Source of the DNA: Coriobacteriia bacterium | GTDB taxonomy: Bacteria > Actinomycetota > Coriobacteriia > Anaerosomatales > JAAXUF01 | Direction: 5' to 3' | Length of the DNA: 55,640 nt | Assembly: GCA_013334745.1 (NCBI GenBank) | Contig: JAAXWY010000011.1 | Coordinates: 1-55,640 of the forward strand | In this document: positions 4,134-46,180 of the stretch, piece by piece | How the letters are laid out: each line of letters begins with the position of its first letter | Numbering within the stretch: position 1 is the stretch's first letter | The notes under the pieces: model-generated | Databases searched by the model: none | Told to the model about the DNA's origin: nothing | The model's input: only the letters and a program-made list of their open reading frames with translations | Program-made: the position numbers and the translations under genes

Positions 4134-4159
4134 CTCGGCAGCGAGCAGCTGTCGCAGGA

Positions 4160-13968: not shown

Positions 13969-14008
13969 CGCGTGTGTGAAGGGCACGGCTACGCAGCGGT
14001 GTGCGGCG

Positions 14009-14017
14009 TAGAATGGG
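14009..14017 (+). promoter_or_regulatory. Candidate -10 element TAGAATGGG upstream of the modular pilin gene.
   Basis: The same 9-mer as at 6071. It lies about 20 nt upstream of the ATG at 14035. Confidence 0.25.
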
Positions 14018-14034
14018 TAGAGGGAAGTGGCACG

Positions 14035-25066: not shown

Positions 25067-25433
25067 CGAGTCCTACAGCTTCTCCACCGCGCGTACGCGC
25101 TTGGATGAAATCGTCTCTCAGGTGCGCAAGAAGGACACCTCGCTCGAGAAGAGCCTAGATCTGCTCGAGGAGGGTGTCCGTTTGGCGAACGCCTGCACCG
25201 AGATGATCGACCACGCGGACTGGAGCGTGGGTGGCGTCGGGGACGACGCGGCAGGAGAATCCGTTGGCGACGGTGAAGTGTCGGAAGGTGCCGTTGCGTC
25301 AACGGACCCGGTGGCCGAGGGCATCTCGGGTGATACGGTCGCTGACGACGCTTCGGTGCAGGTCGAGACAGACGACGCCGAACCGAGCGACTCGGACGCG
25401 TCCGATGAAGCCGGCGAATCGGTCGACGAGTAA
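25059..25433 (+). CDS. xseB: Exodeoxyribonuclease VII small subunit with a long acidic C-terminal tail.
   Basis: [16 protein letters not shown]...[23 protein letters not shown] matches the XseB helical hairpin pattern. ATGA overlap with nusB. An extra ~60-aa D/E/G/S-rich tail is present. Confidence 0.7.
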
Positions 25434-25473
25434 GAGACAACCGCACGATCAGAGTGCGCGAAACCTGGAAGTG

Positions 25474-27435
25474 ATGAACCGCGTGCCAGAACGAATCCTC
25501 GATTCCATAGAGGCACCGTGTGACGTGAAGGGCCTCTCACAGGCCGAGCTCGCGCAACTCGCCGACGAGATTCGCACCGAGCTCGTGACCACGGTCTCGC
25601 AGACCGGCGGTCACCTGGCGCCCAACCTGGGAGCTGTCGAACTCACTCTGGGCATCCATCGTGCGCTTGACTGCCCGAAGGACCGAATCATCTTCGACGT
25701 GGGGCATCAGTCCTACGTCCACAAGCTGCTGACTGGCCGGCGCGAACGCTTCTCGACCCTCCGCCAGTACGGCGGTGTGTGCGGGTTCCCCAAGAGAAGC
25801 GAGAGCCCCTACGATGCCTTCGACACGGGCCACGCCTCCGATTCGCTCTCGGTCGCACTCGGCTTGGCGCAGGCGCGTGACGCCCGCGGCGGTGACGAAA
25901 CGGTGCTCGTCGTGATCGGTGATGGCTCCATGACCGGTGGCATGGCGTTCGAGGCGCTCAACCACATCGGGCATCTGGGTGCCAAGGTCGTCATCGTCTT
26001 GAACGACAATGAGATGTCGATCTCCGAGAACGTAGGCGCACTGGCCAGTTATCTCGCGCGTGTTCGTCTCGACCCGCGCTACAACCGCCTGCGTGACGGC
26101 GTCGAGAACAAGCTCGCATCGACGACGATCGGTCGCGCAATGGTCGATCTTGGCGAGGCCGTTAAGGGATCGTTCAAGCAGCTCGTCGTGCCCGGCATGC
26201 TCTTCGAGGAACTCGGGCTGAAGTACGTCGGGCCGATCGACGGGCACGATGTCGAGCAGGTCCAAGAGGCTGTCGAGCGGGCGAGGACGTCAGACGGGCC
26301 GGTCATCATCCACGCGGTGACGCGCAAGGGCGCGGGTTACGTGCACGCCGAGGACTCTCCGGACGCATTCCACGGCATCGCGCCGTTCTCGATTGAGACG
26401 GGCAAAGCGCACAGCAAGCCCGGGGCGCCGATTAGTTTCACGGAGGCGTTCTCGGACTCGATAGTTGCCGAGGCGGCGCGTGACGACCGCATCGTCGCGA
26501 TCACCGCTGCGATGCCGTCAGGCACCGGCCTCGATCGATTCGCTGCGACGTACCCGGACCGCTTCTACGACGTCGGCATTGCCGAGCAGCACGCGGTCGG
26601 CATGGCTGCCGGCCTTGCACTGGGCGGCATGATTCCCGTGGTCGCGGTGTACTCGACGTTCGCGCAGCGCGCCTACGACCAGATGATGATGGATGTCGCT
26701 TTGCAGAACCTGCACGTCGTGTTCTGCCTCGACAGGGCGGGGCTGGTGGGCGAGGACGGCCCCACACATCACGGCGTGTTCGATCTCACCTATCTTCGTT
26801 CGATCCCCAACATGATGGTCCTCGCTCCGGCCGATGAGGTCGAGCTTGCTGAGGCGCTTCGAACCGCCATCGCAGCTGATGGCCCGGTTGCGCTGCGTTA
26901 CCCACGCGGAGCCGGCAGTGGACTCGAGATGCCGCAGCAGCCGGTGGCGTGGGACGCGGCGCAAGCCCAGATTCGGCGTAAGGGTACTGACGTCGCGCTG
27001 CTCGCGGTCGGCCGCATGGTCGCCACCGCTGAGGATGCCGCGGACGTGCTGGCCGCACAGGGTATCTCGGCGAGTGTCATCAACGCCCGCTGGGTCAAAC
27101 CGCTCGACTACGAGACGGTATCGTGGGCGGCGAAGAGCCATCGGCTGCTGGTTACGATCGAAGAGAACACGGCTGTTGGCGGGTTTGGCTCCGGTGTTCT
27201 CGAGGCGCTGGCTGACATGGATGTTCAGGTTCCCGTCCTGCGGCTTGCCGTCCCCGATTGCTTCGTGACGCATGGTGCGATGGCGAAGCTTCTCGCGGAT
27301 GTCGGACTGACCGCAGAGGGTGTATGTGGTGCTGTGCTCGGACGGCTGAGCGGTTTCACTTCGGAAGAGTCCGCCACCGCACACGCTGAGGGAGACGTGC
27401 ATGACACGGCGCCGCATCGACGCACTACTGGTTGA
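25474..27435 (+). CDS. dxs: 1-deoxy-D-xylulose-5-phosphate synthase.
   Basis: TPP-binding GDGSMTGGMAFEALNHIG. Transketolase-like pyrimidine-binding and C-terminal domains. The start MNRVPERILDSIEAPCDVKGL is canonical; the upstream in-frame extension to 25231 is a shadow. Confidence 0.9.
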   Translation: MNRVPERILDSIEAPCDVKGLSQAELAQLADEIRTELVTTVSQTGGHLAPNLGAVELTLGIHRALDCPKDRIIFDVGHQSYVHKLLTGRRERFSTLRQYGGVCGFPKRSESPYDAFDTGHASDSLSVALGLAQARDARGGDETVLVVIGDGSMTGGMAFEALNHIGHLGAKVVIVLNDNEMSISENVGALASYLARVRLDPRYNRLRDGVENKLASTTIGRAMVDLGEAVKGSFKQLVVPGMLFEELGLKYVGPIDGHDVEQVQEAVERARTSDGPVIIHAVTRKGAGYVHAEDSPDAFHGIAPFSIETGKAHSKPGAPISFTEAFSDSIVAEAARDDRIVAITAAMPSGTGLDRFAATYPDRFYDVGIAEQHAVGMAAGLALGGMIPVVAVYSTFAQRAYDQMMMDVALQNLHVVFCLDRAGLVGEDGPTHHGVFDLTYLRSIPNMMVLAPADEVELAEALRTAIAADGPVALRYPRGAGSGLEMPQQPVAWDAAQAQIRRKGTDVALLAVGRMVATAEDAADVLAAQGISASVINARWVKPLDYETVSWAAKSHRLLVTIEENTAVGGFGSGVLEALADMDVQVPVLRLAVPDCFVTHGAMAKLLADVGLTAEGVCGAVLGRLSGFTSEESATAHAEGDVHDTAPHRRTTG

Positions 27436-30805: not shown

Positions 30806-31927
30806 ATGCGCCATCAGGGCATCGCACGCATCGACAGGCGAACCAAGGACCTCACCAAGCGCCTCGGTTCGGACGATGTCGCCATCATCGATCACGTCGA
30901 CATGGACCGAGTGAGCGCCGAGGGTCTTATCGAGACCGGCGTCGAAGTCGTGGTCAACGTCGCACCGTCGATCTCGGGTGCATATCCCAATGTGGGCCCG
31001 CTGCTCTTGACGCGCGCCGGCGTGACGCTGATCGACGCTGTTGGGCCCGCCGTGATGGAGCGAATCCGCGAAGGCGATTCTGTAGTCGTGATCGGTGATG
31101 ACATCCTCAAGGACGGAGAGGTCATCGCCACCGGCACCCGACTGTCGACGTCTGACATCGAGGCGAAGATGGAGGCCGCCAAGGCAGGTCTCGGCGACCA
31201 GCTCGATCGGTTCGCACGAAACACGCTCGAGTACCTCGAACGTGAGCAGTCGATCCTGACCGACGACATGTGGGTACCTCGCACGCGGCACGCGATCGAA
31301 GGTCGCCACGTACTCGTCGCGGTACGTGGGTACGACTTCAAGGCGGATCTGCAGGCGCTTCGGCCCTATGTGAGAGAGATGCGCCCGGTACTCATAGGCG
31401 TGGACGGTGGGGCCGACGCGATCATCGAGGCGGGATTCAAGCCCGACATCATCGTCGGCGACATGGATTCCGTGACCGATGCCGCTCTGTCGAGCGGAGC
31501 GGAGCTGATCGTGCATGCGTACCCGGACGGTAGGGCACCGGGCATGGAGCGGCTGGAGGAGCTTGGGCTGCAAGGCGTCGCGTGGCCTCTTGCCGCGACG
31601 AGCGAGGACTTGGCGCTGCTGCTGGCCTGGGAGTCGGGTGCCGACCTGATCGTCGCGGTTGGGACTCACGCGAACCTTGTGGAGTACCTCGACAAGGGAC
31701 GGAAGGGTATGGCGTCGACCTTCCTCGTCCGACTCAAGGTCGGTCCGAAGCTCGTCGACGCGAAGGGCGTCAACAAGCTCTACCGCGCCTCGGCGAGCCC
31801 GTCGCAGCTCATGCCAATCGTACTGGCCGCTTTGGTCGTGGTGACCGCGGTCATCGTCATCTCGCCCGCCGCTCGGTCGTTCATCGAACTGATCATCCTT
31901 CGTATCCGCGCCTGGTTTGGCGCCTGA
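30806..31927 (+). CDS. SteA-like (Rv1697 family) putative cytokinetic ring protein.
   Basis: Conserved recN-steA-steB-pyrG synteny of Actinobacteria. Soluble N-terminal domain plus a C-terminal TM helix. The assignment is mostly by context. Confidence 0.6.
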   Translation: MRHQGIARIDRRTKDLTKRLGSDDVAIIDHVDMDRVSAEGLIETGVEVVVNVAPSISGAYPNVGPLLLTRAGVTLIDAVGPAVMERIREGDSVVVIGDDILKDGEVIATGTRLSTSDIEAKMEAAKAGLGDQLDRFARNTLEYLEREQSILTDDMWVPRTRHAIEGRHVLVAVRGYDFKADLQALRPYVREMRPVLIGVDGGADAIIEAGFKPDIIVGDMDSVTDAALSSGAELIVHAYPDGRAPGMERLEELGLQGVAWPLAATSEDLALLLAWESGADLIVAVGTHANLVEYLDKGRKGMASTFLVRLKVGPKLVDAKGVNKLYRASASPSQLMPIVLAALVVVTAVIVISPAARSFIELIILRIRAWFGA

Positions 31928-31954: not shown

Positions 31955-32803
31955 ATGTACAACCTCCGCTACCACATCGTCTCACTCGTCGCCGTGTTCC
32001 TTGCGCTCGCGATCGGTCTCGTTCTCGGCGGGCTCGTCGTCCAGCAGGGCAGCTTCTCGCGCCAGCAGGATGCGCTCGTCTCGGGATTGCAGCGTGACTT
32101 CCGCAAGCTGAAGAACGAGAACTCGAGGCTGAAGAAGGAAGTTGCCCTCCAGAACAGCTACTCCGAGCAGATCACGAGCGCTTGGGCCAAGAACCGACTC
32201 AAGGGTCACGCAGTCGTGATACTCACGAGTGGCGCGGAGAAGGAGGGCGCTGCGGCTGCAGCGGCCGACGTGAGAACCGCGGGCGGTACGCCTGTCACCG
32301 TGACGATTTTGAAGCGCGAGTTCGGACTCAACGACGAGAAGGTCGTCTCCGCGCTGCGATCCGTGGTCGCGACCGACGCCGACCTGCGTCCATCCCTGCC
32401 GGCGTCACTCGCTGCGGAGTGGACGACACCTGATGAGCCACGACCGATGACGGATGCGCTCGTAAAGGCGGGTGCGATCAAGGTGGCCGGGTTCAAGGGC
32501 TCGAAGGTGGCGACCGACCTCGTCAGCGTCGCCGCGTTCCTCAAGGAACCCGACGCTGTCGCTCTCGACATCGGCCGAGCCTACGCGGACTCCGGCTACT
32601 ACGCGATCGGGGCCCAGACCCCGACGAGTGGTACGGGAGTGGCAGCGGCAGCAGTCGCACGTCGACTCTCCGCGTTCGACACCCTTGGGACGCAACCCGG
32701 CCGCTTCACCCTTGTGGCGTTGCTGAGTGGCGGGGAGCAGGGGTACTTCGGGCTCAGCGCGAACACGATCAAGCCGTTCCCGGCCTTGCCCGACGACCAG
32801 TAG
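31955..32803 (+). CDS. SteB/MctB-like (Rv1698 family; annotated as copper transporter in some genomes).
   Basis: N-terminus MYNLRYHIVSLVAVFLALAIGLVLGG... closely resembles the MctB N-terminal TM/coiled-coil region. Position between steA and pyrG. Confidence 0.65.
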   Translation: MYNLRYHIVSLVAVFLALAIGLVLGGLVVQQGSFSRQQDALVSGLQRDFRKLKNENSRLKKEVALQNSYSEQITSAWAKNRLKGHAVVILTSGAEKEGAAAAAADVRTAGGTPVTVTILKREFGLNDEKVVSALRSVVATDADLRPSLPASLAAEWTTPDEPRPMTDALVKAGAIKVAGFKGSKVATDLVSVAAFLKEPDAVALDIGRAYADSGYYAIGAQTPTSGTGVAAAAVARRLSAFDTLGTQPGRFTLVALLSGGEQGYFGLSANTIKPFPALPDDQ

Positions 32804-32810
32804 CGAGCGT

Positions 32811-33518
32811 CTAGGCGGACCGGTCGTCGCTCACGCCGGCGTGATGCCGCTCGGATGCGAGTTTGGCCAGCGCGAGTGACACGTGCACGAACTGGCGGCC
32901 CCGGTGCACAAACCCCGACACGTCCCGGCCTGTCGCGGCGTGCGCCATCGTGGTCGGCACCTCCAACAGACGGAAGCCTGCACGAAGTGCCCGAACGGTG
33001 AGTCCGACCTCGACGCCGTAGCCGCTGAGGAAGGGCCGGGTTCGCGCCAGGCATTCGCCGGTGATCGCGCGCTGACCCGACAGGGGAGCGTTTGCCGTGA
33101 ACGGGCCGCCGTAGCGCACGATGCCCCACCGGGCGAGCCGCATCACGAAGCCGAAGCCCGCCTTGCCTTCGGGGCGAGGGAACGTGGCGATCGTCATGTC
33201 GGCTTCGCCCGCGACGATCGGTCCGAGCAGGGCGGCACCCTGACTCGCCGTCTCGCCGAGGTCGCCATCGAGCAAGAGCACGATGTCCGCATTCTCGACG
33301 CGCTTGGCTCCCGCTTCAAGCGCTCCGCCCTTGCCGGCGTTGCCGAACATGCGGACGACCTTGGCGCCGGCCCGCTCGGCGAGGATGGCGGTGTCATCCT
33401 CACTTCCATCGTCGACGACCACGACTCGCGTCACGCCATCGATCGCCAGTGCGGCCTCCACCGTGGCAGCGATCCGCTCGGCCTCGTCGTGTGCGGGTAT
33501 GAGGACTGCGATGTCCAC
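32811..33518 (-). CDS. Family 2 glycosyltransferase (dolichyl/polyprenyl-phosphate sugar synthase-like).
   Basis: VLIPAHDEAERI, VVDDGSEDDT, FGNAGKGGAL and the LLDGDL (DxD) motif. Length 235 aa. Confidence 0.8.
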   Translation of the reverse strand: MDIAVLIPAHDEAERIAATVEAALAIDGVTRVVVVDDGSEDDTAILAERAGAKVVRMFGNAGKGGALEAGAKRVENADIVLLLDGDLGETASQGAALLGPIVAGEADMTIATFPRPEGKAGFGFVMRLARWGIVRYGGPFTANAPLSGQRAITGECLARTRPFLSGYGVEVGLTVRALRAGFRLLEVPTTMAHAATGRDVSGFVHRGRQFVHVSLALAKLASERHHAGVSDDRSA

Positions 33519-33519
33519 C

Positions 33520-35118
33520 TTATGCTCCTCGTCCGAACCGGCGGGCGATCGTGCGTCTCGCCAGCGTCATACCGCTGGCGACCTCGGCCACGCCGAGGAT
33601 GCGTCCGACACCGAAAGCGATGCCGAGGCCAACGATTCCGCCGAGCGTGACTTGAATCAGTGCCCCGCCGGGGTTGCCCGCCAGACCCGGGGACGCCCAG
33701 GTGATCGCCCATGCTGCGGCTCCACCAATGGCTGATGCGAACGCCATGCGCGCGAACGTCCAGGTCACACCACTCGAGTCGAAGCCGCCGATCCGCCTAC
33801 GAAGCAGCAGCCCGAGTGTCACGGAGATGCAGAAGTATGCGGCGACGTCAGCCATGGGGATGCCGTTGATGCCGATGCCGGCCCACTCACCGACGCCGGT
33901 CGACAGCACCACGTAGAGCGTGATCTGCACGCCGATCGTGAGCGCAAGGTTCACCCACATGGGTGTCTTCGTGTCCTTCAACGAGTAGAACGTGCGCAGC
34001 AGGAACATCGTGAGCGCGTAGAAGATCAGCCCGGCTGCCCACCAGCGCAGTGCGCCCGCGACGAGCGGGATGTCCTCGGCTGTGAAGGCGCCGACTCGGT
34101 ACAGCGTCACGAGCGGCACCGCGAGCGCCACCATCACCGCTGAGGCTGGCAACATCATCACGCCGGTTGCACGTAACCCGCGCGCAAAGGTCTGCTTGAA
34201 GGCGACCATGTCGGTCTTGCCGGCCGAGTCGGAAAGCTCGGTGAACACGGCGGTGGCCAGTGCCACAGCTAGGATGCCGTAAGGGAGCTGGTAGAAGACC
34301 CACGCGTAGGTGAGGACCGAGACGCCCTTCTCGGACACGGCCAGCGCCGAGGAGTTGCGAAACGACACCGCGACGAGGTTGGTGACCACGTAGATGAACG
34401 TCGGGATCGCGAGGCGCAGCATACGTCGCACCGCAGGGTCGCGAAGACCCAGCCCCGCCGAGTACTTCCAGCCTGACTTAAACACCGCCGGAACCTGCAC
34501 CGCGAACATGACGAAGACGGCGAGCGTGGTCCCGAGCGCGAGGACGATCGCTGCCGGGCCGGCTGCGGTCGCCTGTCCCGACACGTCGCCACCGAGCGCC
34601 ACGAACGCAAGCATCGCACCGATGGCCACGACGTTGTTGAACACGGGTCCAACAGCCGGCCAGAAGTACTGCCTGCGGGAGTTGAGCAGGCCCGAGATGA
34701 TGGAGCCGGCGCCGTACAGGACGACCTGCAGGGCGAAGAAGCGGAAGAAGAACGTGGCCGCGGGCACGACCTTGGCGGCCTCCTGCGGAGACATCCGGAA
34801 CGTCTGCGTCCAGATGAACGGTTCGGGGAAGATCGTGCCGATGACGCCGATGACGCCAAGGCACAGGAGCGCGAGGTTGAAGACGCGACTCGAAAACGCC
34901 CACGCCGCGTCGTCGCCCGTCTGCTCGCGCAGTTCCATGAACATCGGGATGAAGAGCGACGAGATTATGCCGCCTGCTACGAGCTCGAAGATCATGTTGG
35001 GGATGTTGTTGGCGACGCTGTACGCAGACATCAGGCCCGTCGCTCCGAGCGCGAAGGCGGTGGCCCAGATGCGTAGGAAGCCCGTGATGCGTGAGAGCAT
35101 CGTGAGTGTCGACATCAT
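33520..35118 (-). CDS. murJ: MurJ/MviN family lipid-linked oligosaccharide flippase.
   Basis: N-terminal LSRITGFLRIWATAFALG MurJ signature (SRxLGFxR). 14 predicted TM helices. Length 532 aa with no C-terminal pseudokinase extension. Confidence 0.75.
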   Translation of the reverse strand: MMSTLTMLSRITGFLRIWATAFALGATGLMSAYSVANNIPNMIFELVAGGIISSLFIPMFMELREQTGDDAAWAFSSRVFNLALLCLGVIGVIGTIFPEPFIWTQTFRMSPQEAAKVVPAATFFFRFFALQVVLYGAGSIISGLLNSRRQYFWPAVGPVFNNVVAIGAMLAFVALGGDVSGQATAAGPAAIVLALGTTLAVFVMFAVQVPAVFKSGWKYSAGLGLRDPAVRRMLRLAIPTFIYVVTNLVAVSFRNSSALAVSEKGVSVLTYAWVFYQLPYGILAVALATAVFTELSDSAGKTDMVAFKQTFARGLRATGVMMLPASAVMVALAVPLVTLYRVGAFTAEDIPLVAGALRWWAAGLIFYALTMFLLRTFYSLKDTKTPMWVNLALTIGVQITLYVVLSTGVGEWAGIGINGIPMADVAAYFCISVTLGLLLRRRIGGFDSSGVTWTFARMAFASAIGGAAAWAITWASPGLAGNPGGALIQVTLGGIVGLGIAFGVGRILGVAEVASGMTLARRTIARRFGRGA

Positions 35119-35382
35119 CGCTGTCGATCTGGCGATGGACGGCTTGCTGATGGTGCGCGCCTCCGGGTTCGGCGGCCGAGAAGGCCGCGTCTGAATGGAT
35201 CGGCCGCTTCACACCGGCCAGCACAAGTGTACCCGAGCGGCTCGCGGCGCACCCTGCAGTATTCGCTATACTGACCTCGGGCACAGTTGCCCGGACGCGG
35301 CGCGCCCGCACCGGATCACCCCTAGTCGAACCGAGGCGGCGAACGCGACACACTCGTGTCAGTGCAGCCGCATGGAGCGGGA

Positions 35383-37713
35383 ATGAAGCGAGTCTGGCCG
35401 ATAGTCGCCATATTCGCCGCCGTTATGGTGGCGTGCGTAGCCGCCCCTCCTCTCACCACCACCGCAGCAGCCGCAACCGCAGCGCAATCCAAGGATCGAA
35501 CCGTCTATCTGGTCATCGCGCCGTATCTGACCTGGGCCGATGTCACAGCGACGTCGACCCCCTCCCTGTGGCGCATCGCCGAGCAAGGCGCGGTCGCCAG
35601 CGTCAACGCCCGGAGTCGTGTCCGGAAGTCGGGCACAGGGGCGACAGCGCTCGAGGGTGCGCTCGCGATCTCGTCAGGCGTCTGGGCGCTACCCGATTGG
35701 GCGGCTCCTGCTGCGTTCAACGCGAGCGAGACGGTCGCCGGTGGTACCGCAGCAGAGTCGTACCGGCGCACAGTCGGGGACTCGACCGACGATGCCGACA
35801 TCGTGTTCTTGGGGCTGCCGATCATCGAGCGTGCCAATCGCAAAGGATCGGTCGACGTGCAGCTGGGTACGCTCGGCGAGACGATCACCTCTGCGGGCGG
35901 TGTGACTGCGGCCATCGGGAACTCCGATACCGGGTACAGCGATGCGCCCGAGTTTCAGCGACCCGCGGCCGTCGCGTCGATGGATGCATCGGGGCTCGTC
36001 GCATTCGGCGACGTGTCGGCGGCGCTGCTTGCGACGTCGACCGCGGCTCCGTACGCGCGAGGGACCGACCCCATGCGCTTCGCGAACGCGCTTGCGAGCG
36101 CACTTCAGCGAGTTGAGGCGCACGGCGGACCCGCACTGGTGGTGCTCGATGCGGGCGACCTCGCTCGCGCCCGCGACTTCTCGTGGCAGGTGGATCCGAC
36201 GGTCGCCGCGCGCCAGCGCGCAGAGGCGGTCGCAGCGCTCGACCACGTTGTCGGCCTAGCGGTAGACGCCCGTGGTCCCGATGACGTGGTCATCGTCGCG
36301 TCACAGGCCCTCTTCGCCGACCCAAGCGGAGATGCAGAGGGTTTCGGTCCGCTGCTCGTGCTCGGCGAAGGCTTCGAAGGCTTCGCCACAGCGTCATCGA
36401 CGCACCGGATGGGGCTGGTGACCAACATTGACATCACTGCGACCGTGCTTGAGGCGCTCCGGCTCGAGCGCCCCGTACAGGTGCTTGGCAGTCCCATCAA
36501 CACACTGAGCACCGACAAAGATGCGTCTTCGCGTATCGCCTACTTGAGTCGGCAGTCGGACGTTCTTGTCGCGATCAATCAGGTGAAGCCTGCGGTCTCT
36601 CGCACGATGGTGGTGCTGGCCGTTCTCGCATTCGCGTTGACCCTGGCTCTCGCGCTCCTTGCATCCCCAACGCCGGGCACGGTCACGGTGCTTGCGATGA
36701 CGGCCCGAGGAGCGCTGCTGCTGGCGCTGGCGATTCCATGTGCGGTCTGGCTCGCCGCGATCGTGCTCCCGGCGCCTGGCTCGGGTGCCGCAGCCGGGGC
36801 CGCGATCGCGCTTGGCACCGTCGCGCTCGCCGCGCCGCTCTTCGCGTTGTCGCGTCGGCTTCCCATTCGTGCGCCGGTGGCCGTGCTGTGCCTCCTTACG
36901 TCACTCACGCTGCTGGCCGAGCAGTTCGTCGGGGCACCCCTCTCGCTCCTGTCGGCACTCAGCTACTCGGCGCTACTCGGCGCGCGCTACTACGGTATCG
37001 GCAACGAGACCGCGGCGATCGTGTTCGGTTCGCTGGTCGTCGGTTGCGCGCTACTCATCGACGCGTGGCCACGGGCCCGCTGGGTGGAGATGCTGCGATC
37101 CTGGGGCGTCGCTGTGCTCGGAGTCGTGTTCGTGGGCGTCGCCGTCGCGCCGGCTCTGGGTGCCAACGTCGGTGTCGCCATCTGGGGAACCGCGGGCTTC
37201 GCGCTTGCTGCGCTGCTGTTGAGGGGCGTCCGTCTGACTCCGGGGCGCGTCGGGCTGATCATCGTGGGTGCGGTGATGGTCGTGGGTGTGTTCGCCGCGG
37301 TCGACGTGTTCGGCGGTGGAGCGCAGACGCACCTCGCACGAGCGCTTGAAGGTGCGGACAGGGGTGGTGTTGGAACGCTGTGGACGATCATCGTGCGTAA
37401 GGCCGGCGCGAACGCGCGGGTGCTTGGCAGTACCGAACTGACGTGGATCCTCGTATCGGCCGCAGCGCTCGGCGCCTTGGTACGGTGGCGCCGACCCGCC
37501 GTGTGGACCAGTCTTCGCTCCGCCAACGCGGCCCTGTTTGCCGTGGCGACCGCAGCGATTGGCGCGGGCATCGTCGCCTTCTTCACTGAAGACTCCGGAA
37601 TCGTCATCCCGTCCTACATGGCCCTGTACGTCGGGGGCGCGTTCGCGTGGATGTTGTTGGCCCGTTTGGGCGACATCGAGGCGGTGAACCGCGATGACTC
37701 CGATCGTCAGTGA
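35383..37713 (+). CDS. Large exported/polytopic membrane protein: signal-anchor, ~420-aa extracytoplasmic domain, then ~10 TM helices.
   Basis: N-terminal signal/TM (MKRVWPIVAIFAAVMVACVAAPP) with RBS-like spacing. The C-terminal half is strongly hydrophobic. Divergently transcribed from the murJ-like gene. No identifiable catalytic motif. Confidence 0.5.
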   Translation: MKRVWPIVAIFAAVMVACVAAPPLTTTAAAATAAQSKDRTVYLVIAPYLTWADVTATSTPSLWRIAEQGAVASVNARSRVRKSGTGATALEGALAISSGVWALPDWAAPAAFNASETVAGGTAAESYRRTVGDSTDDADIVFLGLPIIERANRKGSVDVQLGTLGETITSAGGVTAAIGNSDTGYSDAPEFQRPAAVASMDASGLVAFGDVSAALLATSTAAPYARGTDPMRFANALASALQRVEAHGGPALVVLDAGDLARARDFSWQVDPTVAARQRAEAVAALDHVVGLAVDARGPDDVVIVASQALFADPSGDAEGFGPLLVLGEGFEGFATASSTHRMGLVTNIDITATVLEALRLERPVQVLGSPINTLSTDKDASSRIAYLSRQSDVLVAINQVKPAVSRTMVVLAVLAFALTLALALLASPTPGTVTVLAMTARGALLLALAIPCAVWLAAIVLPAPGSGAAAGAAIALGTVALAAPLFALSRRLPIRAPVAVLCLLTSLTLLAEQFVGAPLSLLSALSYSALLGARYYGIGNETAAIVFGSLVVGCALLIDAWPRARWVEMLRSWGVAVLGVVFVGVAVAPALGANVGVAIWGTAGFALAALLLRGVRLTPGRVGLIIVGAVMVVGVFAAVDVFGGGAQTHLARALEGADRGGVGTLWTIIVRKAGANARVLGSTELTWILVSAAALGALVRWRRPAVWTSLRSANAALFAVATAAIGAGIVAFFTEDSGIVIPSYMALYVGGAFAWMLLARLGDIEAVNRDDSDRQ

Positions 37714-38686
37714 CGTGGTCGCAGTTGCGTTCGCGCTGCTCGGCGCGGTCGTTATCCCTTGGGTCGGGATGAGCATGTTCGTGCCGACACTCGAGGCTGA
37801 CATGACGTCCGGTGTCACCAACTACCGTGGCCGGCGGGTCGTGCTGGGTCTGGGTGTCGTCTGGGTCATGTGGGCCGTGGGCATGTCCGTTGCTGCGGGT
37901 GCGCTCGACACCGCAGCATTCATCTGGGCGTCGTGGGGTCCTATGCCCACCGGTGGTTCGTTCATGGTGTTCGCTCCCACTGTGCTCGTGCTCGGCGCCT
38001 TTGCCTTCGGCTTCATCGACGACTCGTTCGGAACGTCTGCCGAGCGCGGTTTCCGTGGACACCTCGCGGCGCTCACGCGGGGGCGCCTCACCACCGGCGG
38101 TCTCAAGCTGCTGGGGATCGGACTCTTGTCAGCCGCAGCCGCGCTGACGGATTCGATGCGCATCGTTCAAAGTCACGGCCTACCCCTGGCACTTGTTCGT
38201 TGGGTTGCCGCGACATTCGCTATCGCCCTGACGGCGAATCTGCTGAACCTCATGGATCTGCGTCCCGGTCGGGCGCTCAAGGTGTACTCGGCTCTGGTCG
38301 GGATGATTGCGTTGACCGCGCTGCTCAGTTCAGGTGCGTTGCGCATCCCCGCACTGCTGCTCGTGATCATGCTTGGACCCGTCATCGCGGTCTGGCGGTT
38401 CGATGTCGGCGAGCGTGCGATGCTGGGCGACGCCGGAGCGAATGCGGCAGGGGTGCTTGCCGGCTGGACCGCGGTGACGCTCTTCACGTCGACATCCAAC
38501 GTCGCCATCTATGCAACGCTCATGTTGCTGCTCAATCTCGCCTCCGAGAAAGTCTCCTTCTCGGCGGTGATCGAGGGTAGCGCGGCACTTCGATGGCTCG
38601 ATTCGCTTGGCAGGAAAGCGCCGGATTCGGGCACAGACACAACATCGGATGAAACCGGTCGCTCAATCGCAACCGGAGAGAAGTAG
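37694..38686 (+). CDS. Divergent MraY/WecA-like (GT4 family polyprenyl-phosphate glycosyl-1-phosphate transferase-like) membrane protein.
   Basis: GFIDDSFG...GLKLLGI resembles the MraY DDxxD...KLLGQ region. ANLLNLMDLRPG is a degenerate NAxNxxDGxDG. 20-nt overlap with the preceding gene. About 9 TM helices. Confidence 0.45.
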   Translation: MTPIVSDVVAVAFALLGAVVIPWVGMSMFVPTLEADMTSGVTNYRGRRVVLGLGVVWVMWAVGMSVAAGALDTAAFIWASWGPMPTGGSFMVFAPTVLVLGAFAFGFIDDSFGTSAERGFRGHLAALTRGRLTTGGLKLLGIGLLSAAAALTDSMRIVQSHGLPLALVRWVAATFAIALTANLLNLMDLRPGRALKVYSALVGMIALTALLSSGALRIPALLLVIMLGPVIAVWRFDVGERAMLGDAGANAAGVLAGWTAVTLFTSTSNVAIYATLMLLLNLASEKVSFSAVIEGSAALRWLDSLGRKAPDSGTDTTSDETGRSIATGEK

Positions 38687-38740: not shown

Positions 38741-40351
<1,611 letters not shown>

Positions 40352-40371: not shown

Positions 40372-41493
40372 ATGAGCGACGAACGTCTGCTGTCGACCTT
40401 CCTCGACCTCGTGCGCATCGATTCGCCCTCGGGTTCCGAGCGCGTTGCAGCCGAGTACTGCCGAGACGCGCTCGAAGCGGCGGGCTGCCGCGTGTGGTTC
40501 GATGACGCCGCCGAGAAGACCGGCTCGGATGTGGGCAACCTCATCGCGCTGTTGCCGGGCGAACTTCCGGGAACGCTGGCTCTGAGCGCGCATCTCGATG
40601 TGGTCGAGCCCTGTCGTGGCATCGAGCCGGTGGTCACCGAGGGCATCGTGCACTCCGCGGGTCCGACGGTGCTGGGTGCAGACGACCGGGCGGGACTCGC
40701 TGCGGCCATCGAAGTGGTTCGTCGGGTCGCCGAGTCCGGTGCTCCAGGACCGACACTGCGCATCATCTTCACGGTGCAGGAGGAGGTCGGCCTGCATGGT
40801 GCCAAGCACCTGCGGCCTGAGGACGTGGCGTGTGATCTGTGTCTCGTGCTTGATGCCGACGGCGCTCCCGGCGGCATCGTTGTCGGCGCCCCGACGCATT
40901 ACACCTTCACGGCGCGGTTCCTCGGCCGAGCATGCCACGCCGGCGTTGCCCCCGAGGCCGGCGTCAGCGCCATCACCATGGCGGCGCACGCCATCGCGAG
41001 CATGGAGCTTGGCCGGCTCGACGAACGCACCACCGCCAACGTCGGGTCGATCCGCGGTGGCCGCGCGACAAACGTCGTCACCGCGCAGTGCGACATCACC
41101 GGGGAGTGCCGCTCCCTCGACAGCGACCGCGTCGAGCAGGTCAAAGCGGATATGGATCGCGCGATGCGTGATGCGGCCGAGCGCTTCGGCGGGCAGGTCG
41201 AGCTCGACTGGAACCTCGAGTACGAGGGTTTCGTGCAGCCCGAGGAGGGTCGTGAGATGTCGGTGGTCGTATCGGCGATGTGCGATGCGGGTCTTGCGCC
41301 GTGGACGTACCTGACCGGCGGCGGATCGGACGCTAACGTTCTCGCCGCGATGGGCATCCCCACACTCGCCTTGGCGTGCGGCATGTCGGGCGTTCATGGC
41401 ACTGCCGAGCAGATCGAGGTCGCGGACCTGAATGCGCTTGCGAGGGTCTGCGTCGCCGCCGCCGTTCGGCTTGGCGAATCGGGTGTGTCGTGA
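40372..41493 (+). CDS. M20/M42-type metallopeptidase (peptidase T-like).
   Basis: HLDVV...GADDRAGLAAAIEVV metal-binding pattern, EE catalytic pair (VQEEVGLHGA) and C-terminal His. Length 373 aa. Confidence 0.65.
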   Translation: MSDERLLSTFLDLVRIDSPSGSERVAAEYCRDALEAAGCRVWFDDAAEKTGSDVGNLIALLPGELPGTLALSAHLDVVEPCRGIEPVVTEGIVHSAGPTVLGADDRAGLAAAIEVVRRVAESGAPGPTLRIIFTVQEEVGLHGAKHLRPEDVACDLCLVLDADGAPGGIVVGAPTHYTFTARFLGRACHAGVAPEAGVSAITMAAHAIASMELGRLDERTTANVGSIRGGRATNVVTAQCDITGECRSLDSDRVEQVKADMDRAMRDAAERFGGQVELDWNLEYEGFVQPEEGREMSVVVSAMCDAGLAPWTYLTGGGSDANVLAAMGIPTLALACGMSGVHGTAEQIEVADLNALARVCVAAAVRLGESGVS

Positions 41494-42590
41494 GACTCGT
41501 CTGGGGCTCGGTGAGTGCGGTCGTCTCCGATGGGGGGGCGGTGCAGCGTCTCAGCGTGTCGCTTGATGACGGCTCGGGCGGCAGCGCGATCAACTACCCC
41601 GACCTCTCGGGCACCTGCGCGACGGGCGACCGCGTGCTCCTCAACACGACCGCCGTCGATCTGGCGCTGGGCACCGGTGGCACCCATTTCGTCGTTGCTC
41701 GCGAAGGCGCTGGAAGGGGAGTCGCGCTCGACTCGGGTAGCGGCGGCCACGTCATGAAGCTGCGCTATACGCCGCTGCAGCGTGACGTTCTGGCCGTCGA
41801 GTCCCAAGAGAGTCCGTTTCACGAAGTGATGGCGGCCGCGAGGTCCGTGGACGGGATGCCCGTGGTCTGTTGCGGGCTCCACAGTCAGGTTCCGCTCGTG
41901 GCTGCTGCGATCAAGCAGGCGGATCCCGCGCTGCGGGTCGCGTACTGCATGACCGATCAGGCCGCCCTGCCCATGGCGCTCTCCGGCATCGTCGCGCAGG
42001 CGGTGGAGGCGGGCCTTATCGACGAGACGATCAGCTGCGGCCAGGCGTTCGGAGGCGGGCTTGAGGCTATCAACCTGCACTCCGCGCTGCTGGCCGCGCG
42101 CCACGTCGCATTCGCCGACATCGCCGTCGTCGCAATCGGGCCGGGCGTCGTGGGTACGGCGACACCGTTCGGGCATGGCGGGATCGGGCAGGGAGAAGCG
42201 CTCAACGCGGCCGCCGCGGTCGGCGGTACCCCGATCGCGTGTCTACGGCTCTCGTTTGCAGACGAACGCGAACGGCATCGCGTCGTGAGTCACCACAGCA
42301 TCGCCGCGCTGACGCGCGTCGCGATGACGCGCTGCCTGGTCGCGGTCCCCACGTTGCCCGGCGAACTCGCGGGGCGGGTTGACGCAGCGCTGCAGGCTGC
42401 CGGCATCTGGGGCACGCACGAACGAGCGGACGCACGGGCCGGAACACAGGACGCTCCCAATCTTCGCGGCCTGACGGTAACGACGATGCGGCGCGGCTTC
42501 GCAGACGATCCTGCATTCTATTTCGCAGCCTATGCCGCCGGAGAGGTGGCCGCACGCTCGGCAAGGCCGAAAATATCGGATAATCACTGA
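41490..42590 (+). CDS. Hypothetical protein, possibly DUF3866-like.
   Basis: GTGA overlap with the peptidase stop. Gly/Ala-rich, 366 aa. No recognisable catalytic motif. The longer ORF-track start at 41376 overlaps the peptidase. Confidence 0.45.
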   Translation: MRLVWGSVSAVVSDGGAVQRLSVSLDDGSGGSAINYPDLSGTCATGDRVLLNTTAVDLALGTGGTHFVVAREGAGRGVALDSGSGGHVMKLRYTPLQRDVLAVESQESPFHEVMAAARSVDGMPVVCCGLHSQVPLVAAAIKQADPALRVAYCMTDQAALPMALSGIVAQAVEAGLIDETISCGQAFGGGLEAINLHSALLAARHVAFADIAVVAIGPGVVGTATPFGHGGIGQGEALNAAAAVGGTPIACLRLSFADERERHRVVSHHSIAALTRVAMTRCLVAVPTLPGELAGRVDAALQAAGIWGTHERADARAGTQDAPNLRGLTVTTMRRGFADDPAFYFAAYAAGEVAARSARPKISDNH

Positions 42591-43936: not shown

Positions 43937-46180
43937 GTGGGCTTTCGAACGGGTATGAATTCCTTCATGGTCGCGCAGGGCGCGGCCCAGTCGGAGGGGG
44001 TAGCGGTGTTCCTGTTCCAGATGCTCTTCGCGGTAACGGCGGTGTTCATCGGATTCGTCGTGTCGCTGTGGCTGATCGGCTTCCGCGTCATCCGCAATGA
44101 CCGCGTGGCGATCGTCGAGAAGTGGTGGAGCCCCAAGGGTTCACTCAAGGATGCGATCATCGCCCTGGGCGGCCAAGCAGGCTACCAGCCCGATGTGCTA
44201 CGAGGCGGCATCCACTTCCGCACGCCACTCATGTACCGCGTTCACGTGATGCCGCTCGTCACCATCACGCAGGGCAAGATCGGGTACGTCTTCGCGCGTG
44301 ACGGCGTCCCGCTACCTCCGGGTCAGACACTCGGCGCGGTCATACCGGGCAACACATTCCAAGACGTCAAGGCGTTCATCGAGGGTGGCGGTCATCGAGG
44401 TCCGCAGCGGCAGATTCTGCGAGAGGGAACCTACGCGTTCAACCTCGCGCAGTTCGTGATCATCACCGAGGGTCAGATCTACTACCTGCCGATGGGCACC
44501 ACCGCCCAGGAACAGGCGACCATTCAGATGATGGCCCAGCACCTCTCATCGGTGGACGGCTTCAACCCGATCGTCATCAAGGGTGCTGACGACAAGACGG
44601 GCATTGTGACGGTCAACGACGGTCCGTCGCTGCCCATGGGCGACATCATCGCCCCCAACGTGGGCGATCAGCAGGGCGATCCCAACTACCACAACAACTT
44701 CCAGAACCCCGAGGCGTTCCTCGCCGGCGGCGGTTTCCGTGGTCGTCAGTATCAGGTGCTCACAGAGGGCACGTACTTCGTCAACCGACTGTTCGCCACC
44801 GTCGAACTCATCAACAAGATCGTTGTTCCTGTGGGCTACACGGGTGTCGTGGTGTCGTACTACGGGCCTAAGGGCGTGGACACCTCCGGCGAGGAGTACC
44901 GCCACGGCGAGTTGGTCGCGATGGGCAACCGCGGCGTCTGGAGCGAAGCCCTCATGCCGGGCAAGTACGCGTTCAACACGTACGCAGGCTCCATCAGCAT
45001 GGTTCCCACGACCAACATCATCCTCAAGTGGATCCTCGGCCAGAGTGGTGAGCACAACTACGACGAGAATCTCGCCGAGGTGAGCCTGATCACCAAGGAC
45101 GCCTTCGAGCCGCTGCTGCCACTCTCGGTGGTTATCCACATCGACTACAAGAAGGCGCCGCTCGTCATCCAGCGCTTCGGCGATATCAAGATGCTTGTCA
45201 ACCAGACGCTCGACCCGATGGTCTCGGCGTACTTCAAGAACATCGGCCAGACCATGACGCTTATCCAGCTCCTCCAGCAGCGCGCCGACATCCAGGCCCG
45301 TTCGAGTACCGAGATGAAGGCCAAGTTCGAGCACTACAACCTCGAGCTTGAAGAGGTGCTCATCGGCACGCCGCATTCGCAGCCGGGCGACGACAAGATC
45401 GAGCAGATCCTCATGCAGCTTCGTGACCGGCAGGTCGCGGTCGAGAAGCTCGAGACCTACGAGAAGCAGCGCGTGGCCGCCGATAAGGAGCGCGAACTGA
45501 AGGAGGCGACGGCCGTCGCCGAGCAGCAGACGATCCTTACGCAGTCCGAGATCAACATCAGGATTCAGGAGAACTCCGGTCGCGCCGAGCTGCAGCGCGC
45601 CACGCAAGACGCCGAGCGCGTGAAGACGCTGGCAGCAGCCGACTCTGAGCGCGTGAAGTTGCTTGCCGACGGCGATGCAACGCGTGTCAGGCTTATCGCG
45701 CAGGCCGATGCTGAGAAGGAGGCGCGCGTCGGTATCGGGCGCGCTATCGCGATCGAAGAGCAGGTGCGCGCCTACGGCGGGCCGCAGCTCCAGCTCATCC
45801 AAGAGGTCATGGGCAAGCTGGCCACGGCGATCGAGACGGCGAAGATCCCGATCGTTCCCTCCACGTACGTCCAGATGGGCGATAGCGGTGGTGAGGGCGA
45901 CGGTGGGGGCGCCAACGCGTTCAACCTGCTGATGACGCTGCTCGCCACCGATAAGCTCAGCTCGGCGGACAACCCACTCGCTCCGGCTGACCCGGAGCAG
46001 GCAGAGTCGGTGAGAGCGATCAAGGCGGCGATTCGGGAGCAGTTGGCGACGGCAGAGCCCGCAGCGGCACCCACACCGGCACCCGCACCGGCGCCGAAGC
46101 CGGCGCCTGAGGCGCCCGAGATCGTCGATCCGACGCCGAAGCCATCGGTAGAGGTCCCGCCGGAGGGCTCCGCTCAGTAG
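43937..46180 (+). CDS. Flotillin/SPFH (band 7) family-like membrane protein, enlarged to 747 aa, with an internal duplication and a Pro-rich C-terminal tail.
   Basis: N-terminal hairpin TM (VAVFLFQMLFAVTAVFIGFVVSLWLIGF). SPFH-like core. EA-rich coiled coil (AELQRATQDAERVKTLAAADSERVKLLADGDATRVRLIAQADAEKEARV). Duplicated EGGGxRGxQxQ(I/V)LxEGTY segment. APTPAPAPAPKPAPEAPE tail. Confidence 0.6.
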   Translation: MGFRTGMNSFMVAQGAAQSEGVAVFLFQMLFAVTAVFIGFVVSLWLIGFRVIRNDRVAIVEKWWSPKGSLKDAIIALGGQAGYQPDVLRGGIHFRTPLMYRVHVMPLVTITQGKIGYVFARDGVPLPPGQTLGAVIPGNTFQDVKAFIEGGGHRGPQRQILREGTYAFNLAQFVIITEGQIYYLPMGTTAQEQATIQMMAQHLSSVDGFNPIVIKGADDKTGIVTVNDGPSLPMGDIIAPNVGDQQGDPNYHNNFQNPEAFLAGGGFRGRQYQVLTEGTYFVNRLFATVELINKIVVPVGYTGVVVSYYGPKGVDTSGEEYRHGELVAMGNRGVWSEALMPGKYAFNTYAGSISMVPTTNIILKWILGQSGEHNYDENLAEVSLITKDAFEPLLPLSVVIHIDYKKAPLVIQRFGDIKMLVNQTLDPMVSAYFKNIGQTMTLIQLLQQRADIQARSSTEMKAKFEHYNLELEEVLIGTPHSQPGDDKIEQILMQLRDRQVAVEKLETYEKQRVAADKERELKEATAVAEQQTILTQSEINIRIQENSGRAELQRATQDAERVKTLAAADSERVKLLADGDATRVRLIAQADAEKEARVGIGRAIAIEEQVRAYGGPQLQLIQEVMGKLATAIETAKIPIVPSTYVQMGDSGGEGDGGGANAFNLLMTLLATDKLSSADNPLAPADPEQAESVRAIKAAIREQLATAEPAAAPTPAPAPAPKPAPEAPEIVDPTPKPSVEVPPEGSAQ

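Follow-up and report, generated by a model that had tools for sequence, protein, structure and literature searches.

What do the four genes that separate steB from pyrG in a Coriobacteriia bacterium make, and why do they stand next to the steA-steB pair? The genes reside in JAAXWY010000011.1, a complete 55,640-bp contig of a metagenome-assembled genome (MAG), called here the window; database copies of two of its proteins bear the names HGB10_04765 and HGB10_04770. They code for a family 2 glycosyltransferase (GT2; 32811..33518, minus strand, 235 aa), a MurJ-family protein (33520..35118, minus strand, 532 aa), a large membrane protein denoted BIG (35383..37713, plus strand, 776 aa) and a predicted transferase of the MraY/WecA/DPAGT1 fold, denoted PNPT-like (37694..38686, plus strand, 330 aa). 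We give a probability of about 0.5 to the reading in which the four genes encode an assembly line for a lipid-carrier-linked envelope glycan, with a genetic link to the cell-separation complex SteA/SteB. A polyprenyl-phosphate-linked glycan pathway, already suggested in a preliminary description of the sequence, accounts for the parts most economically. Systems of this kind, with an initiating transferase, a glycosyltransferase, a flippase of the MOP superfamily and an outer-face enzyme, are familiar; here the components and their context are novel variants. These include a distinct PNPT subfamily, a BIG family devoid of annotation, a MurJ clade that has diverged, and an association with steAB of which we have found no description.

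The four genes are one functional unit, because their order is conserved and because BIG is fused elsewhere to GT2, to MurJ, or to both. The order recN, steA, steB, GT2 and MurJ (inverted), BIG, PNPT-like, pyrG is found also in a complete 2.5-Mb genome, in which BIG is 46% identical to the window protein, in a relative with a BIG 40% identical, and in roughly twelve other MAGs of Coriobacteriia. Three proteins (P0170, P0392, P0403) are fusions with GT2 at the N-terminus of BIG. The GT2 part of P0170 shares 53% identity with the window enzyme, and the rest of the protein can be aligned with BIG from end to end. Single open reading frames (ORFs) of about 1200 aa joining BIG to MurJ were identified in two independent MAGs, of Coriobacteriaceae and Eggerthellales (L018, 353-3925, and L019, 6150-9785, both on the minus strand). 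Larger fusions feature two paralogous copies of BIG flanking GT2 (P0310 and P0322, about 1790 aa), and in one protein of 2394 aa (P0323) the arrangement is MurJ-BIG-GT2-BIG. The preliminary description had recognized both the four genes between steB and pyrG and their relation as a module, and the two statements hold: the ORFs have the coordinates and flanks that it gave and a coding-type composition, with a GC content at third codon positions of 0.74-0.85.

The PNPT-like protein would catalyze the initiating reaction. The window protein matches no Pfam family even at E <= 10, no NCBIfam model and, profile search included, no sequence of solved structure. Its relatives, which number in the thousands, are more informative. 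PF00953 is matched by 28 of 61 family members at E <= 0.01, and the scores of relatives rise to 24.7-24.8 bits, the gathering score being 27. All the top 26 structures retrieved by Foldseek with the AF2 model of the window protein (pLDDT 91.6, pTM 0.89) are MraY or DPAGT1 (probability 1.00, TM 0.47-0.53). The assignment of the protein to a transferase family stands therefore at both family and fold level. The label GT4, used earlier for it, is correct if the Pfam family Glycos_transf_4 (PF00953) is meant, incorrect if the GT4 family of CAZy is meant. The protein had also been called degenerate. This view is not tenable, as about 42 positions are invariant in the family, the catalytic Asp residues among them. 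Residues D109, D110, N182, N185, D188, G245 and D246 are unchanged in sets of 61 and 17 sequences, members from Geodermatophilus and locus L002 included; D109/D110 and G245-D246 have been equated with the DD and GDxGS-type motifs of MraY and WecA by reading of the motifs, rather than by superposition. The canonical NxxNxxDGxDGL loop is not found in full. DGxDGL is replaced by an invariant DLRPGR, the second Asp being an invariant Pro. The family is a distinct and strongly conserved subfamily of the MraY/WecA/DPAGT1 fold, marked by the signature NLxDLRPGR.

BIG would act at the other side of the membrane. The protein measures 776 aa from the ATG at 35383, which is preceded at 8 nt by GGAG and agrees with the start of the database protein P0121; the 777 aa given earlier were thus essentially right. 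A GTG located upstream, at 35356, would give 785 aa. Searches of Pfam, NCBIfam and PDB by sequence and profile provided nothing usable beyond weak matches of the sulfatase type. In the predicted model (pLDDT 89.9, pTM 0.89) an N-terminal anchor helix is followed by an alpha/beta ectodomain (residues ~40-380) and by a membrane domain of 11 helices (residues 381-775). The ectodomain has the core alpha/beta fold of the alkaline-phosphatase superfamily, and matches LtaS, LtaP, EptA and cofactor-independent phosphoglycerate mutase; one UniRef entry labels a BIG homologue as phosphoglyceromutase. With 6524 cluster representatives retrieved at E <= 1e-3 in an exhaustive profile search, BIG is a large family of new architecture, for which neither a Pfam nor an NCBIfam model exists.

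Conservation in BIG is concentrated in the membrane domain. In 123 diverse proteins, residues R535, N541, P590, G593, H650 and D737 are conserved in 100% of the sequences, D641, R672 and K673 in 98-99%, and G538, T340 and D350 belong to the same conserved set. The near-universal polar residues of the ectodomain are only D182, R193, D259, R262, D287, T340, R342 and D350. According to the positive-inside rule applied to the model helices (1 + 11), the N-terminus is cytoplasmic, the ectodomain is outside and the C-terminus is cytoplasmic, and the invariant residues of the membrane domain are all located in outward loops. The topology fits the fusion of GT2 either before the anchor helix or after the C-terminus. 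This make-up of invariant residues is typical of enzymes that grip lipid pyrophosphate. A similarity to Rv3909, which had been considered earlier, found no support. The corresponding Pfam family, DUF6049, was not matched by the window protein at E <= 10, by any of 54 relatives at E <= 1, or by distant relatives, the Geodermatophilus protein included, at E <= 0.1. BIG is not confined to Actinomycetota, since a 793-aa homologue resides divergently upstream of steA in a Bacillota MAG (L059, 4786-7167, minus strand).

The GT2 enzyme scores 59.1 bits with PF00535 (gathering score 23.3; E 6.9e-16), and features DDGS and a DxD motif, LLLDGDL (D84/D86), both read directly in the translation. It had been described as similar to dolichol-phosphate mannose (DPM) synthases. 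Sequences of solved structure matched at E <= 0.001 are solely glucosyl-3-phosphoglycerate synthases (GpgS) and mannosyl-3-phosphoglycerate synthases (MpgS), with E values from 2e-11 to 4e-6, and no DPM synthase, GtrB or ArnC chain is found among them. The best NCBIfam match is AglJ, a dolichyl-phosphate hexosyltransferase (86 bits, cutoff 325), followed by GpgS (65 bits, cutoff 262); PpgS is also matched (47 bits, cutoff 370). All these scores are far below the cutoffs. In a polyprenyl-phosphate glycosyltransferase one would expect an equivalog-level match and, C-terminal to the catalytic domain, helices in the membrane or at its interface. Neither was found, and inspection of the 235-aa translation revealed no hydrophobic membrane segment. 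The enzyme therefore does not qualify as DPM-synthase-like; it resembles a small soluble GT-A glycosyltransferase, apparently closer to glucosyl-3-phosphoglycerate synthases.

The third component is assigned by sequence to the MurJ/MVF family of the MOP superfamily, and is a predicted flippase of lipid-linked glycans. It matches PF03023 (264 bits, E 2.5e-78) and E. coli MurJ (E 5e-27), and exceeds, as its orthologue in L001 does, the cutoff of the equivalog model TIGR01695 (280.5 bits versus 235.55). The MurJ encoded by the Geodermatophilus module remains below it (151.6 bits). Arginines R18, R24 and R270 of the central cavity are essential for MurJ in E. coli and B. cenocepacia (PMC4790310). 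The first two have counterparts in the window protein, R10 and R16, and R270 has none: at the positions of E. coli D25, D39, R52, R53, D269 and R270 are found I, S, F, E, W and V. The same holds for 53 MurJs linked to the module, of the Coriobacteriia type as of the other actinobacterial ones. All retain R18 and R24; residue 52 is invariably F or Y and residue 53 E or D, and no basic residue occurs at 270, with the reservation that the alignment is less certain near residue 270 than near residue 52. The common residue signature indicates that the module MurJs form one specialized, divergent clade. The equivalog cutoff can thus be passed by proteins devoid of arginines needed by characterized lipid II flippases, which calls for caution in automatic annotation.

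The module is preceded in the window by steA (30806..31927, plus strand) and steB (31955..32803, plus strand). SteA matches NF040608 (498 bits, cutoff 150), PF12555 and PF04263, and is a putative cytoplasmic, thiamine-pyrophosphokinase-like, nucleotide-binding partner of SteB; the steB product, of the MctB/Rv1698 family (PF11382, E 4.1e-26), is the membrane-anchored extracytoplasmic partner of SteA. The linkage extends far beyond Coriobacteriia. A species-level scan with the PNPT-like alignment, carried out on one genome per species, identified relatives in at least 594 species genomes, and 87 loci (80 fetched for the purpose plus those collected earlier) have been compared. The PNPT-like gene is associated with steA in 77 of the 87 and with steB in 73, in Actinomycetota as in Clostridia, and most of the exceptions are truncated contigs. 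Loci have been sorted into types. In many Actinomycetota, including Nonomuraea, Streptosporangium, Kribbella, Geodermatophilus and Cellulosimicrobium, the order is steA, steB, PNPT-like, MurJ, then a GT4-type GT-B enzyme and BIG, which are found in some loci, and pyrG. In most Actinomycetota a GT-B enzyme (PF00534/PF13439) holds the position of GT2. The genes that are inverted in the window run in the same direction as steAB in other Actinomycetota. Solirubrobacterales and similar organisms have minimal loci made by steA, steB, PNPT-like and pyrG. In Clostridia (Romboutsia, Peptostreptococcus, Terrisporobacter, Syntrophomonas, Desulfoscipio) the order is spoIVB, spo0A, a pcnA-like gene, steA, steB, GT2, PNPT-like, DUF3866 and NUDIX. 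DUF3866 genes are found within 10 kb of the PNPT-like gene in 15 of 17 Coriobacteriia-type, 17 of 20 Clostridia-type and 7 of 12 minimal loci, and in none of the 38 actinomycete loci of the MurJ plus GT4 type; the association covers Coriobacteriia, Clostridia and basal Actinomycetota. In the window, steA, steB, the small GT2, the PNPT-like gene and DUF3866 all lie within 12 kb, and the same set recurs in 17-19 Clostridia-type and 15-17 Coriobacteriia-type loci.

The module is therefore the Coriobacteriia version of an ancient and widespread gene set genetically tied to steA and steB. It had been regarded as an insertion, by comparison with Mycobacterium and Corynebacterium. A recent horizontal insertion has been rejected. 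The GC content is 0.62-0.68 over the 32-39 kb interval, as in the flanks, so that no compositional sign of recent insertion is seen, and synteny is kept across classes. In Mycobacteriales pyrG comes directly after steB (Rv1697-Rv1699). As the PNPT-like core follows steA-steB in Actinomycetota and Clostridia alike, this direct junction most likely denotes the loss of the module.

Some loci depart from these patterns. In L014, L016 and L017, from Coriobacteriia and uncultured MAGs, two of them from isolates labelled Lab288, genes are ordered as GT2, MurJ, BIG, PNPT-like and pyrG, and neither steA nor steB is found upstream within the sequence fetched, hence the module is separable from steAB, or steAB has moved. 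No MurJ resides in the loci of the lineage featuring GT2-BIG fusions. A 301-aa protein that matches no Pfam family is encoded there between the PNPT-like gene and pyrG (L002, 6063-6968; L003, 11734-12639), and may be an alternative flippase or another enzyme.

What is known of the neighbours comes from two lines of work. SteAB is a transmembrane regulator of the RipC and RipA peptidoglycan hydrolases (PMC6705760, PMC12977500). SteA has a conserved pocket resembling a phosphonucleotide site and predicted to bind carbohydrate, and the location of steAB downstream of spo0A in Clostridia has been reported (2019 and 2026 SteAB papers). The C. glutamicum protein has a nucleotide pocket and is stabilized by GDP and UDP (PMC12977500). 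A text search of the two SteAB papers retrieved neither pyrG nor MurJ, flippase or glycosyltransferase, and the linkage was not found described in the literature on steAB neighbours, MurJ paralogues next to pyrG, lipocone and the C. difficile glycolipid glycosyltransferase. In C. difficile, the cluster cdr20291_1053-1057 is essential and of unknown function, and its knock-down gives short, swollen, phase-bright, chaining cells, a phenotype similar to that of teichoic acid (envelope-polymer) knock-downs (PMC12157513). The five genes encode a pyrophosphokinase (373 aa), an exported protein (291 aa), a GT2 (230 aa), a "glycosyl transferase family protein" (274 aa) and a DUF3866 protein (355 aa). 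Among the Peptostreptococcaceae loci retrieved with the window PNPT-like protein, that of Romboutsia (L041) codes for proteins of 373, 289, 230, 274 and 363 aa, with the same order and annotations. In C. difficile MurJ1 has been assigned to the wall polymer PS-II, and MurJ2 to lipid II (PMC12157513), which sets a precedent for MurJ paralogues dedicated to a polymer.

The pathway may be drawn as follows. The data show the families and folds of the four proteins, their fusions, the conserved linkage to steAB and the outward placement of the invariant residues of BIG; we infer the chemical steps, which sugar and which acceptor take part, and a functional tie with SteAB. At the cytoplasmic face, the PNPT-like protein would take a phospho-sugar, or some related phospho-group, from a nucleotide-activated donor and attach it to polyprenyl phosphate. 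The altered nucleotide loop suggests that the donor differs from the standard UDP-HexNAc. The soluble GT2 would then add, or supply, a second sugar. The presence of a GT-B enzyme in the equivalent place in most actinomycetes favours this addition over the synthesis of a polyprenyl-phosphate sugar. The lipid-linked product would be flipped by the MurJ-family protein, and taken up at the outer leaflet by BIG, which, through the invariant Arg, Lys, His, Asp and Asn residues of its outward loops, would hand over the glycan or phosphoglycan to an acceptor outside the cytoplasm, for instance peptidoglycan or a glycolipid of the membrane. The alkaline-phosphatase-fold ectodomain of BIG would be an accessory, possibly non-catalytic module. 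A role of the product in maturation of the septal wall is suggested by the conserved linkage to steAB, by the orphan pocket of SteA and by the phenotype seen in C. difficile.

Several observations weigh against this scheme. In the Clostridia-type loci no MurJ, and BIG in one locus only, were found within 10 kb, so that not every cluster codes for the flipping and outer-face steps. The equivalence of cdr20291_1053-1057 to the Romboutsia and window clusters has been deduced from order, size and annotation of the genes, not from their sequence. The activities of the PNPT-like protein, BIG and GT2 are predictions. Since the second Asp of the NxxNxxDGxDGL loop is replaced, the donor of the PNPT-like protein, or even the type of reaction, may differ from those of WecA and MraY. 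For the membrane domain of BIG no match of fold was seen. The canonical nucleophile and metal ligands of the alkaline-phosphatase superfamily do not appear to be conserved in BIG, in which the positions following strands 1 and 2 vary, and the ectodomain is mostly deleted in the Eggerthellales BIG-MurJ fusions, in which profile positions 68-276 are absent. On both grounds the ectodomain may be non-catalytic, as in PbgA/YejM. Finally, the Coriobacteriia MurJ passes the NCBI equivalog cutoff, and might be the housekeeping lipid II flippase.

The last point is central to the alternative in which the module serves peptidoglycan synthesis and septal remodelling, BIG being a partner or regulator of MurJ, and PNPT-like and GT2 making or modifying a lipid-linked, peptidoglycan-related precursor or signal to be sensed by SteAB. 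We consider it unlikely. The scores of the window protein and of its L001 orthologue (280 against 235.55), the small size of related genomes (1.8-2.5 Mb), in which two MurJ paralogues are less expected, the direct fusion of BIG to MurJ in Eggerthellales MAGs, and the control exerted by SteAB on RipA and RipC (PMC6705760, PMC12977500) speak for it. All 53 module MurJs, however, lack equivalents of R52 and R270 and carry an acidic residue at position 53, the Geodermatophilus protein is below the cutoff, MurJ is missing in Clostridia-type and Solirubrobacterales-type loci, and neither of the two C. difficile MurJ genes has a locus tag within the 1053-1057 cluster. A dedicated PNPT accompanied by a glycosyltransferase is moreover the signature of a separate glycan, as MraY and MurG already serve lipid II. 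Lower still is the chance of a system akin to Gtr/Ppm, in which GT2 would make a polyprenyl-monophosphate sugar, MurJ would flip it, and the membrane domain of BIG would decorate a polymer as a GT-C-like enzyme, PNPT-like making the acceptor or acting apart. The fusion of GT2 to a polytopic membrane protein recalls M. tuberculosis Ppm1, in which domains D1 and D2 are fused, and conserved acidic residues lie at the ends of the outer helices of BIG (D513 in the consensus, D641, D737); AglJ and PpgS are among the GT2 matches. These resemblances are countered by the low equivalog scores (86 against 325 at best), by solved-structure matches restricted at E <= 0.001 to GpgS and MpgS, with DPM synthase, GtrB and ArnC all missing, by the lack of hydrophobic segments in GT2, and by the absence in BIG of a Pfam match to any GT-C family. 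The GT-B enzymes (PF00534/PF13439) found at the GT2 position in most Actinomycetota belong to a class not known to make polyprenyl-phosphate sugars.

The kinship of GT2 with enzymes acting on 3-phosphoglycerate leads to a different scheme, similar to a lipoteichoic acid pathway and based on a glycosyl-phosphoglycerate unit, in which GT2 would glycosylate 3-phosphoglycerate and BIG would work as an LtaS-like polymerase or transferase, transferring phospho-linked units through its alkaline-phosphatase-fold domain onto a membrane anchor. The lipoteichoic acid of C. difficile, for which no biosynthetic genes are known to be assigned, contains GlcNAc-(1->2)-glyceric acid, and the matching cluster of this species is essential. 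The closest solved homologues of GT2 and its second-best NCBIfam match fit such a scheme, as do the LtaS, LtaP, EptA and phosphoglycerate mutase matches of the BIG ectodomain and the UniRef label. Yet the catalytic Thr and the metal ligands of LtaS and EptA do not appear to be conserved in BIG, its domain order is the reverse of that of LtaS, some lineages have lost most of the ectodomain, and the GpgS score of GT2 is 65 against a cutoff of 262; neither a PNPT nor a flippase has a part in the scheme, and glycerate-containing polymers are known from few of the lineages carrying the module. It is very improbable on the whole. Glycosylation of pilins or other proteins, which had also been put forward, has next to nothing to recommend it. 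Genes for a type IV pilus or type II secretion system (T2SS), encoding the ATPase (T2SSE) and the platform protein (T2SSF), are present in the window at 2460-5380, but they lie 27 kb from the module and have no part in its conserved synteny, no oligosaccharyltransferase family (PglB, or Wzy_C as in PglL and WaaL) was detected in BIG, and the module is linked to steAB and pyrG across two phyla. These pilus genes were probably what had brought pilins into the discussion.

The assembly-line reading raises a further question, the origin of SteA and SteB. These may have arisen as the sensing or organizing arm of an ancient, septum-associated pathway of Gram-positive bacteria for a lipid-linked glycan or phosphoglycan, rather than as a regulator of RipA. 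The proposal is tentative, and we would rather doubt it than hold it. If true, the orphan nucleotide/carbohydrate pocket of SteA reads the state of the pathway, the essentiality of cdr20291_1053-1057 in C. difficile reflects the same pathway, and Mycobacteriales kept only SteAB after the glycan was replaced. SteAB is being actively studied in connection with cell division and drug tolerance of mycobacteria, and the five-gene essential cluster of C. difficile is a candidate drug target. If there is one pathway, the SteA ligand, the roles of the C. difficile genes and the substrate of the divergent MurJ may be approached by assays of lipid intermediates and glycopolymers. A counterpart of BIG in C. 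difficile might be CDR20291_1124, an essential membrane protein of 723 aa.

Genes of the module are tightly packed. The convergent steB and GT2 are 7 nt apart, 1 nt separates the stop codon of MurJ from the start codon of GT2, without overlap, and BIG and PNPT-like genes share 20 nt. The divergent MurJ and BIG genes are separated by an interval (35119..35382) which presumably carries both promoters; no sigma-70 consensus site or Rfam family was found in it. Scans of the region and of the whole window for promoters, terminators, Rfam families and tRNAs gave nothing informative, and neither tRNA nor tmRNA genes, nor any Rfam family at the gathering threshold, are present in the 55.6 kb. Only 4 of the 46 genes called in the window are on the minus strand, and GT2 and MurJ are two of these. 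Since nearly all the other genes of the contig are on the plus strand, the GT2-MurJ pair marks a local inversion. By profile hidden Markov models, recN, steA and steB make the upstream flank of the module, and pyrG, which encodes CTP synthase (38741..40351, plus strand; NF003792, 861 bits), the downstream flank. The latter is a conserved flank, located after the module in most actinobacterial loci, and is not proposed as a pathway member. The DUF3866 gene (41376..42590, plus strand; PF12982, E 1.3e-112), the second gene beyond pyrG, is a probable further member of the extended cluster; its true start may be downstream of the called one, as the Pfam match begins at residue 71.

Other genes of the window deserve a mention. 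A single ORF of 542 aa (11909-13537) encodes shikimate kinase fused to 3-dehydroquinate synthase. A 696-aa protein (13972-16062) features repeated CarboxypepD_reg, Big_1 and SpaA-type Ig-like domains, and is probably of the surface or adhesin type. When the dxs ORF is taken from the first start codon (25231-27435), about 90 additional residues precede the TIGR00204 match at the N-terminus, and its true start is probably downstream. In a 747-aa protein (43937-46180), which gave no NCBIfam match, the sole recognizable part is a central SPFH/Band 7 domain (residues 331-509).

The components may be compared with known systems one at a time. PNPT-like proteins have in common with WecA, MraY and DPAGT1 the predicted fold and the DD, N..N..D and GD motifs. 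They differ in being below detection by Pfam in the window protein, in matching no NCBIfam model, in featuring DLRPGR in place of DGxDGL, and in carrying invariant motifs of their own (NYxG, GFRGH, GRLTTGGLK, SExxSFS). GT2 is similar to GpgS as a soluble GT-A enzyme with a DxD motif, for which GpgS and MpgS are the sole solved sequence matches, but is shorter (235 aa versus about 325 aa), scores far below the GpgS cutoff, and has relatives fused to membrane proteins. In LtaS and EptA an N-terminal membrane domain precedes a C-terminal alkaline-phosphatase-type domain with a Thr nucleophile. In BIG this order, which is reversed also with respect to LtaP, MCR-1, BcsG and PbgA/YejM, is anchor, ectodomain and 11 transmembrane helices, a nucleophile is not identifiable, and the invariant residues sit in loops of the membrane domain, rather than at catalytic nucleophile and metal ligands. 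The non-enzymatic PbgA is closest in spirit to BIG, the ectodomain of which is dispensable in some lineages.

At the level of the locus, the window has homologues of all five genes of the C. difficile cluster cdr20291_1053-1057, the equivalence resting on order, size and annotation. In the window MurJ and BIG are added, GT2-MurJ is inverted, and pyrG and a gene for a PepT-like peptidase precede DUF3866. The steA-steB pair of the SteAB-RipA/RipC system of Mycobacteriales is the same that resides immediately upstream of the window module; in Mycobacteriales pyrG comes directly after steB. The logic of parts is that of pathways served by MurJ or Wzx flippases, as those for C. difficile PS-II (MurJ1), Wzx/Wzy O-antigens and teichoic acids. 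In contrast to these, the window module has no detectable Wzy, WaaL or LCP family, features an unannotated outer-face protein, BIG, and a changed nucleotide loop in the PNPT-like protein, and is linked with steAB instead of belonging to a polysaccharide island.

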